Below, one piece after another: positions 50,999 to 51,817 of a DNA stretch of 64,000 bases (positions are counted from its first letter, which is position 1; each line of letters starts with the position of its first letter). This DNA comes from Candidatus Saccharimonadales bacterium (GTDB lineage Bacteria; Patescibacteriota; Saccharimonadia; Saccharimonadales; Saccharimonadaceae), in assembly GCA_036378955.1 (NCBI GenBank), contig DASUVM010000007.1, positions 36,442 to 100,441 of the forward strand. Reading direction: 5' to 3'. The position numbers and the translations under genes were made by a program. Below the pieces are notes generated by a model. The model had not been told where the DNA came from and ran no database searches. It worked only from the letters and a program-made list of their open reading frames with translations.

Positions 50999-51817
50999 TC
51001 AATCAAGCCCCATTGATTTTTTATTTAGCTTTTTACGAGCTTTTTCAGAAAGACCGCCCCACATACCTCGCGTAATCTTATTTTCGATTGCATAGTGTAG
51101 ACAATCTGCTGTTACGGGGCAATATTTGTTACATAATTCCTTAGTAGATTCGTGTGGTTCACCTCTATCCGGGAAAAACAAGTTAGTATCTTTACCGCGG
51201 CAGGCACTCTCTAGGCGCCAGGCCTCGGGGCCTTCTGGATCAATAGTCAATAAAGGATCTGTTGGCTGTGTTATTGTTGGAGCCAATCTAGTGACATTTC
51301 CGCTCACTACCCCTAGTATGCGCGCACCGAATTTCTGGCGCCCCAGAGGGGTTAAACGACCAAACAACTCGTTCTGCGGGGGCCTGTCTTGCACAAACTG
51401 CGTCACGCGCATGCTGTATGTACGCACCCTCCCTTTATCTACCTTGATTAATTCTTCGCCTATTGCTTCGTTGATTTGATCAACTAGTGGCAAAAAACTT
51501 TGGGCAAATCGTCTTCGGCCGCTCCTTTGCTGGCCCCCTTCACCGATAATATTTATGTGCTCCCCCGAAACAGGCTTGCCCACGGCGACCGCAACACAAT
51601 TCAATGCAAATACCTGTAGGCGATCATAAACTGGAATAATCTGCTCGTTAACCCTCAAGCTGCCGTTCCCTCGTAAGCCAATTTCACCTTTTGGCGGCAC
51701 AGCTGCGCTAAACTGGTTCAAGTAGGTGGCCGGCAATAAGCCAGCAAACAATATCTCTGCGGTTGACATATTTGGAACAGGTTCCGTGGAACCTTTTGAA
51801 GATTCAATGGTAGCCAT
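50999..51817 (-). CDS. WhiB-domain protein with a roughly 200-aa N-terminal extension
   Basis: The C-terminus reads WRLESACRGKDTNLFFPDRGEPHESTKELCNKYCPVTADCLHYAIENKITRGMWGGLSEKARKKL. It has four Cys (C...C-x3-C-x5-C), a GMWGG turn and a basic tail. The N-terminal 200 aa are unrecognised. G+C looks native. Confidence 0.7.
   Translation of the reverse strand: MATIESSKGSTEPVPNMSTAEILFAGLLPATYLNQFSAAVPPKGEIGLRGNGSLRVNEQIIPVYDRLQVFALNCVAVAVGKPVSGEHINIIGEGGQQRSGRRRFAQSFLPLVDQINEAIGEELIKVDKGRVRTYSMRVTQFVQDRPPQNELFGRLTPLGRQKFGARILGVVSGNVTRLAPTITQPTDPLLTIDPEGPEAWRLESACRGKDTNLFFPDRGEPHESTKELCNKYCPVTADCLHYAIENKITRGMWGGLSEKARKKLNKKSMGLD

Follow-up and report, generated by a model that had tools for sequence, protein, structure and literature searches.

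A Wbl domain joined to a rare, predicted winged-helix domain beside rpoD in Saccharimonadales

What is a Wbl domain doing in a genome of the Saccharimonadales, and what is the 200-residue extension that precedes it? Both questions are raised by a gene on the minus strand (50999-51817) of a 64,000-nt stretch from a Candidatus Saccharimonadales metagenome-assembled genome (MAG); the order is placed within Candidatus Saccharimonadota, and we call the whole stretch the window. In Actinobacteria, Wbl proteins have a central part in regulating development, virulence and antibiotic tolerance. In the open reading frame (ORF) list of the window the gene is an ORF of 272 amino acids (aa) with an ATG start and a TGA stop, and it encodes a C-terminal Wbl domain behind an N-terminal domain that is probably a very divergent winged helix of the OmpR/PhoB type. 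An identical protein is present in NCBI under HEX6462412.1, from a 124-kb contig of a Candidatus Saccharimonadales MAG, with the label "WhiB family transcriptional regulator"; the family name is thus already there, while neither the fusion architecture nor the N-domain is described. We lean towards a reading in which the fusion protein would act as a single-chain, DNA-targeted, Fe-S-dependent adaptor of region 4 of the primary sigma factor.

The C-terminal Wbl domain

Residues 200-264 match the Pfam profile PF02467 (Whib) over its full length (1-65 of 65) with 69.1 bits and an E value of 4.8e-19, far above chance and above the gathering cutoff of 23.6 bits. An earlier note, made from the letters of the window, had proposed a Wbl-like module at this end of the protein, and the module is indeed a bona fide Wbl domain. 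Solved Wbl proteins match it at 40-54 bits, the best of them being Streptomyces venezuelae WhiB (PDB 8dy7_H, 54 bits). The four cysteines are spaced C206-x22-C229-x3-C233-x5-C239, the middle pair, which the same note had correctly read as C-x3-C, lying within CNKYC. In a three-way alignment with the two orthologues described below all four cysteines are invariant, the conservation that the note had set as a check on its proposal, and they should hold a [4Fe-4S] cluster, judging from the family. Since both orthologues carry the canonical C-x2-C, the extra residue of CNKYC is private to the copy in the window and the C-x3-C spacing is not a trait of the family.

Invariant in the same alignment are also W200, F214, F215 and R261 as well as G251, W253 and G255, the turn reading GMWGG (251-255) here and GIWSG in one orthologue; the Wbl domains of the three proteins are 31-51% identical. 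The residues of the aromatic patch of WhiB1 (AP1-4: W3, F17, F18 and W60) correspond to W200, F214, F215 and W253. These aromatic-patch residues have been shown experimentally to bind region 4 of sigma-A (PMC13013590; PMC6954389). The domain ends in a basic tail, KARKKLNKK, at a position where the C-terminal tail contacts DNA in other Wbl proteins (PMC6954389).

Two known Wbl proteins are useful for comparison. Streptomyces WhiB and mycobacterial WhiB2 (class II), which act with WhiA on region 4 of HrdB or SigA, include the best-scoring solved relative (8dy7_H) and share with the fusion protein the four cysteines, the GxWGG turn, AP1-4 and the basic tail, and also the logic of a Wbl protein paired with a DNA-binding specificity factor. 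In contrast to class II WhiB, the specificity factor is proposed here to be covalently fused and to be an OmpR/PhoB-like winged helix in place of WhiA; further differences are the Saccharimonadales host, C-x3-C for C-x2-C and a cognate sigma factor without the H-P anchor (see below). The other is Mycobacterium tuberculosis WhiB5 (Rv0022c), the one Wbl protein of that species whose middle pair is described as C-x3-C (PMC2631452), which still binds a [4Fe-4S] cluster and region 4 of sigma-A (PMC13013590). As the orthologues of the fusion protein have C-x2-C, this spacing is no derived trait shared with WhiB5. Moreover, WhiB5 is a short, single-domain protein lacking AP1, whereas the fusion protein keeps AP1 (W200) and carries an N-terminal domain of 200 aa.

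Wbl proteins have been described as exclusive to Actinobacteria and actinobacteriophages (PMC6282962; 2026 survey PMC13013590). This distribution does not hold for the fusion gene, which is of native composition in the Saccharimonadales MAG and has an orthologue in conserved synteny in a Saccharibacteria chromosome. The literature search retrieved no publication on Wbl genes from Saccharibacteria, Patescibacteria, TM7 or the Candidate Phyla Radiation (CPR). The C-terminal half of the fusion protein is therefore a known family member in an unreported phylum.

The N-terminal domain, its predicted fold and its relatives

To define the family of the extension we compared residues 1-199 exhaustively with 1.84 billion (1.84e9) cluster representatives using phmmer. 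Only two other proteins were retrieved, both with a C-terminal Whib domain: P0002 (272 aa, about 50% identity over the N-domain, E 2e-46) and P0003 (279 aa, 37% identity, E 6e-14). Among these representatives the combination of N-domain and Wbl domain is thus found only in this family. When the full-length query was run through a word index of 5.8e9 proteins, it retrieved itself alone, and profiles built from three and from five sequences detected no family members in the 5.8e9 proteins beyond those known. Scans for degenerate patterns in 185,579 species genomes and in the Joint Genome Institute (JGI) metagenomes recovered only the two known loci. Many positions of the N-domain are invariant in the three-way alignment of the orthologues. 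By these comparisons the extension is a real, conserved, lineage-restricted and extremely rare domain, and neither the fusion architecture nor the N-domain family seems to have been described before.

The N-domain has no hit in Pfam, NCBIfam or the sequences of the PDB. The earlier note had left these 200 residues unassigned. Their sequence reads like the pattern of an OmpR/PhoB effector domain, and structure prediction gave a winged-helix-like fold. A resemblance of LPAxYLN to succinate dehydrogenase subunit D was dismissed as chance (E about 1). AlphaFold2 (AF2) models were built on an alignment of five family members in two independent runs. Both runs give predicted local distance difference test (pLDDT) values of 84-94 across residues 20-170, and the model of the N-domain alone has a mean pLDDT of 78.9 and a predicted template modelling (TM) score of 0.77. 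The modelled elements are helices 19-25 and 30-36, strands 44-49, 53-56 and 59-62, helix 66-77, a two-residue strand (83-84), helix 85-91, a 9-residue loop, helix 101-119, a hairpin (124-127/133-136), strand 139-143 and helices 150-153 and 157-172. The topology of the model, β-β-β-α1-β-α2-loop-α3-hairpin, follows the order of OmpR/PhoB effector domains from the three strands to the hairpin wing.

This assignment is further supported by structural comparison and, more tentatively, by profile comparison. In Foldseek searches against the PDB the large majority of the top 50 hits with both models are OmpR/PhoB effector domains, including those of YycF/VicR, ArlR, NsrR, CovR, SaeR, OmpR, CadC, ToxR, PhoB, KdpE, PhoP and RpaA, with probabilities up to 0.99, target TM scores of 0.55-0.73 and root-mean-square deviations of 2.6-4 Å over ~90 columns. 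In a viral library phage CtrA ranks first and a protein annotated 'OmpR/PhoB-type DNA-binding domain' ranks 7th. For hhalign we assembled a reference of PhoB, OmpR, KdpE, CadC and ToxR, each verified as PF00486 at 73-105 bits. Aligned with this five-sequence profile, columns 45-135 of the N-domain pair with columns 12-100 at a score of 30.5 (E 2.3e-4), while 200 column shuffles have a mean of 11.3 (sd 2.1) and a maximum of 20.3. Based on AF2, Foldseek and hhalign together, we consider the N-domain a likely, very divergent OmpR/PhoB-like winged helix.

Compared with the OmpR/PhoB effector domains (PF00486), among them the receiver-less CadC and ToxR and phage CtrA, the N-domain shares the predicted fold and topology with an N-terminal sheet, an α2-α3 loop and a wing; hhalign tentatively places it in the corresponding register against the five-sequence reference. 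In contrast to these proteins, it fails the PF00486 model, and is for this reason not filed as a PF00486 member; it also has extra conserved helices on either side of the core, a weakly basic recognition helix and neither a receiver nor a transmembrane domain. The best-conserved residues of the family flank the canonical core. P29, A30, L33 and N34 of the N-terminal LPAxYLNxF motif are invariant in all five members, and a conserved FxQ motif (F141, Q143) lies at the end of the strand past the wing. The two helices that follow the winged helix are kept in the fused proteins and in part in the stand-alone paralogues introduced below.

The genomic setting of the orthologues indicates how the gene may have arisen. 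P0002 is encoded on OY969928.1, a complete 1.26-Mb Candidatus Saccharibacteria chromosome, in the order dnaG, rpoD, an AAA_18 kinase-like gene, a 177/182-aa protein, a 167-aa Whib protein, the 272-aa orthologue, polA and His_Phos_1, continuing through dUTPase, HAD and fpg; this order equals that of the window bar the genes of the 177/182-aa and 167-aa proteins. P0003 lies on a 2.7-kb JGI contig with a fragment of the kinase-like gene, a 192-aa protein, the 279-aa orthologue and a further partial ORF downstream. The 177/182-aa and 192-aa neighbours are stand-alone paralogues of the N-domain: they align with it over their full length (BLASTP E 1e-11 and 7e-5) and have the LPAxYLN and FxQ motifs in common with it. 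The 64-kb window contains no stand-alone N-domain paralogue. On OY969928.1 the stand-alone N-domain gene is followed directly by that of the 167-aa WhiB (8723-9972 of the examined locus), and both lack a counterpart in the window. With 108 bits to Streptomyces WhiB versus 52 bits to WhiB1, the 167-aa protein is by its scores a clear class II (WhiB2-class) member; it has a 95-aa N-terminal extension of its own. With 69.7 bits, the fused Wbl domain resembles this 167-aa WhiB more than it does the short Wbl protein of the window (53.9 bits). In the simplest reading, an adjacent pair of winged-helix and WhiB genes was duplicated and fused, and the genome of the window kept the fusion alone. The fusion would thus derive from a stand-alone winged-helix gene and a whiB gene of the WhiB2 class, a pair that still stands beside it in OY969928.1; the direction of this event is what we infer from the present-day gene order.

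Window and OY969928.1 proteins of the block are 96% (RpoD), 86% (PolA), 85% (Fpg), 80% (DnaG), 76% (Dut), 75% (kinase-like), 71% (HisPhos), 67% (HAD) and 59% (295-aa neighbour) identical. The fusion protein, with 49% (49% in the N-domain and 51% in the Wbl domain), has the lowest value of the block. The orthologues occupy the corresponding syntenic slot of the complete chromosome and of a third metagenomic contig, and the earlier view of the gene as an old resident is borne out. As far as synteny and composition indicate, the fusion gene is long resident in its clade and vertically inherited, yet the fastest-evolving gene of its block. The same note had taken the two Wbl modules as a sign that the family is functionally entrenched: this can be upheld for no more than a very narrow clade, of which three genomes are known. 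A phage origin of the N-domain is unsupported, as tblastn found nothing that matches it in 50,697 phage genomes.

A putative sigma adaptor and its alternatives

The fusion gene may encode a lineage-specific transcription factor of a small Saccharimonadales clade with two cooperating modules. From what is known of the family, the Wbl module (200-272) would use W200, F214, F215 and W253 to dock on region 4 of the primary sigma factor, while the winged helix (~17-175) together with the tail KARKKLNKK would select promoters. The N-module would then provide the promoter recognition that otherwise comes from a partner such as WhiA or from a short basic tail. As long as the cluster is intact, an adaptor of this kind, sensitive to O2, NO or redox state, could tether the RNA polymerase holoenzyme to particular promoters, being the functional equivalent of WhiA plus WhiB or of a class II activator. 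PhoB also contacts region 4 of sigma-70; PDB 3t72, which is among the sigma hits with a chimeric chain of sigma-70 region 4 and beta, is presumably an example of this contact. A precedent for joining Wbl modules to domains of the transcription machinery exists in a Wbl-sigma factor fusion on an actinobacterial plasmid, the only multi-domain Wbl protein named in a 2018 review of the family (PMC6282962). In that protein the partner is a sigma factor, here it is a winged helix.

Several observations weigh against the adaptor reading or its parts. The aromatic patch is what all Wbl proteins of M. tuberculosis, and also Streptomyces WhiB, use for binding to region 4 of the primary sigma factor, and the SigA replacements H516A, H516F and P517A each abolish binding of WhiB1, H516A also that of WhiB4, WhiB5 and WhiB6 (PMC6954389; PMC13013590). 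SigA and the four best-matching solved primary sigma chains with displayed alignments all show KLRHPSRS..L..YL, i.e. H-P. In the RpoD of the window, where SigA reads KLRHPSRSQVLRDYLD, H516 is replaced by K335 and P517 by H336 in a gapless alignment, and the C-terminus of RpoD is identical in OY969928.1. With K-H in place of H-P, canonical docking may have been lost, or the interface may have been rewired with the His one position later. RpoD, which the earlier note took as the expected binding partner, is a candidate for that part. On the side of the N-domain, none of the five sequences is matched by PF00486, even with the threshold relaxed to E <= 10. The E values in Foldseek are only 0.07-1, with no hit at E <= 0.001, and the hhalign probability is just 44.7% against the five-sequence reference. 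The putative recognition helix α3 (101-119) is weakly basic and poorly conserved, with a net charge of -1 to +3. In the full-length AF2 model the Wbl part has pLDDT values below 50, giving no usable Wbl domain and no inter-domain geometry. Finally, the rapid evolution of the fusion gene within its block points in the same direction.

These points can be read in other ways. As the H-P anchor needed by all tested Wbl proteins is missing from RpoD, the protein could be a one-component redox sensor in which the Wbl domain gates the winged helix through its Fe-S cluster without docking on sigma, i.e. an ordinary repressor or activator. A sensor domain joined to an OmpR/PhoB-type output is a common design, exemplified by CadC and ToxR among the fold hits, and the aromatic patch also stabilises the cluster, so that its conservation is no proof of sigma binding (PMC13013590). 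However, the protein retains all four patch residues and the basic tail, RpoD still has a His at the next position, and a sigma-linked role would suit the conserved location of the gene beside rpoD, though such association is weak evidence; we regard a pure sensor as unlikely. The weakly basic, variable recognition helix, the location of the most conserved residues over the five members (LPAxYLN, FxQ, F163) outside this helix and the lack of PF00486 membership by sequence profile would rather suit an N-domain that serves for interaction or tethering. In this case a degenerate winged-helix fold would recruit another factor to a conventional sigma-bound Wbl protein. We find this rather improbable, since the fold matches point specifically to effector domains that bind DNA and extend over the entire domain with its wing, and the net charge of the core in the N-domain family is +1 to +5.

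Two further explanations concern the Wbl module and the gene itself. A thiol-disulfide oxidoreductase or chaperone activity was once proposed for mycobacterial WhiB proteins, and the cysteine motif does resemble CXXC/CXXXC redox motifs (PMC2631452). Structural and genetic work has since placed all tested Wbl proteins, as transcription factors, on region 4 of sigma-A (PMC6954389; PMC13013590), and a winged-helix fold as fusion partner speaks for a function on DNA, making such an activity very improbable here. That the gene is a contaminant from Actinobacteria, part of a chimeric MAG contig or a pseudogene in decay, or that its Cys-rich motif is due to chance, can practically be dismissed. Nothing in favour of an artefact was found, the sole mild oddity being the one-residue insertion that gives C-x3-C, for which WhiB5 is a functional precedent. 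The G+C content and its value at third codon positions (GC3) are native, the Pfam match is far too strong for chance, and the ORF is intact in three independent assemblies, including a complete chromosome with identical neighbours.

A more far-reaching version of the adaptor reading seems doubtful to us although possible. It states that a CPR lineage has domesticated the Wbl Fe-S module and fused it to an OmpR/PhoB-type DNA-binding domain, which would give the WhiA-WhiB pair in one polypeptide, and that the product docks on a primary sigma factor whose H-P has been rewired to K-H in a co-evolved, non-canonical interface outside Actinobacteria; with the same reserve, the adjacent stand-alone winged-helix and WhiB genes would be a Rosetta-stone hint of a new Wbl partner. 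Cultivated relatives of this lineage live on Actinobacteria. What can be said plainly is that a native, syntenic Wbl gene resides within the dnaG-rpoD-polA housekeeping cluster of Saccharimonadales. If the adaptor reading is true, the Wbl module is portable to another phylum and another sigma region 4, the fusion protein is a natural single-chain example of how Wbl proteins gain promoter specificity, and the stand-alone winged-helix paralogue represents a new class of Wbl partner. The protein would then be among the few identifiable dedicated regulators of an ultra-small epibiont genome, where an Fe-S switch sensitive to O2 or NO is a plausible means of sensing the host-associated state.

Neighbourhood, composition and the second wbl gene

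The positions of the fusion gene, its parts and its neighbours are collected in Table 1. As the earlier note had described it, the gene starts 76 nt after the stop of the kinase-like gene and is co-directional with the dnaG-rpoD-kinase array, which the ORF coordinates confirm. Met17 (51769) is a possible alternative start. Downstream, the longest-ORF call for polA starts at TTG 51006, giving an apparent overlap of 8 nt with the end of the fusion gene. Because the orthologous polA begins MTYEKRLVIIDGKS, the start is most likely ATG 50961 (MNYSKRLVIIDGKS), 37 nt past the fusion stop, and there would be no overlap. A purine-rich GAGGAGAGGGG stretch precedes this ATG (region 50959-51006).

Table 1. 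Positions of the fusion gene, its predicted parts and its neighbours in the window
Feature	Position	Strand	Remarks
Fusion gene	50999..51817	-	Two-domain protein, N-terminal winged-helix-like and C-terminal Wbl; NCBI HEX6462412.1
Residues 17-40	51698..51769	-	Two short helices (predicted); most conserved motif of the family, LPAxYLNxF
Residues 41-146	51380..51697	-	Predicted OmpR/PhoB-like winged-helix core (AF2, Foldseek, hhalign)
Residues 147-175	51293..51379	-	Two predicted helices past the winged helix (NELFxRLT..G..KFG..VL)
Residues 176-199	51221..51292	-	Interdomain linker, variable, low-confidence
Residues 200-264	51026..51220	-	Wbl domain (Pfam PF02467; PDB Wbl matches; invariant columns)
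Putative [4Fe-4S] ligand codons	51101..51202	-	C206 (51200-51202), C229 (51131-51133), C233 (51119-51121), C239 (51101-51103)
Residues 259-267	51017..51043	-	Basic C-terminal tail KARKKLNKK; position of the DNA-contacting tail/AT-hook in other Wbl proteins
polA	48412..50961	-	Downstream neighbour; start re-set to ATG 50961
Spacer	51818..51893	-	76 nt, kinase-like gene to fusion gene
AAA_18 P-loop kinase-like gene	51894..52559	-	Upstream neighbour, kept in 3/3 genomes
rpoD	52563..53606	-	Primary sigma factor (NCBIfam RpoD models); two genes upstream; candidate docking partner
RpoD K335-H336	52599..52604	-	Gapless alignment to M. tuberculosis SigA H516-P517
dnaG	53606-55363	-	Upstream, same strand as the fusion gene

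A promoter-like element, TTGCCA-18-TATTTT with TG, is found at 51857..51828 on the minus strand and ends 10 nt ahead of the ATG of the fusion gene. The promoter and terminator scan showed no terminator-like site between the kinase-like gene and the fusion gene, nor between the fusion gene and polA. In the operon region it counted 17 promoter-like sites compared to a shuffled mean of 10.0 (sd 3.1), i.e. ~2 sd above. As this count is marginal over the shuffled background, the scan neither supports nor refutes co-transcription. Rfam families at the gathering threshold, tRNA and tmRNA genes are absent from the entire 64-kb window (Rfam and ARAGORN), so no riboswitch or leader accounts for the 76-nt spacer.

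The G+C content of the fusion gene is 47.5% (GC3 44%) compared to 47.1% for the window, in keeping with the native composition that had been noticed before. In the six-frame translation of the window there are two Wbl modules and no third, 38% identical to each other. The other wbl gene (35203-35460) encodes 85 aa with 91.9 bits to Pfam Whib and has 64.7% G+C and a GC3 of 74%. This WhiB1-like gene is located between rpsO (35629-35895) and pnp (31946-34063). The rpsO and pnp genes are usually adjacent. The high-G+C patch is limited to ~35200-35500, and two ORFs of low G+C (35-41%) beside it, 34181-34600 and 34645-35139, have no Pfam hits. The closest phage WhiB is just 44% identical to the short Wbl protein. 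Overall, the short wbl gene has the look of a small insert acquired recently from a high-G+C actinobacterium. Elsewhere in the window the kilobases of highest G+C (53-56% versus a mean of 47%) coincide with two large ORFs on the minus strand, 19495-20589 (364 aa) and 39200-41086 (628 aa), neither of which has a Pfam match.

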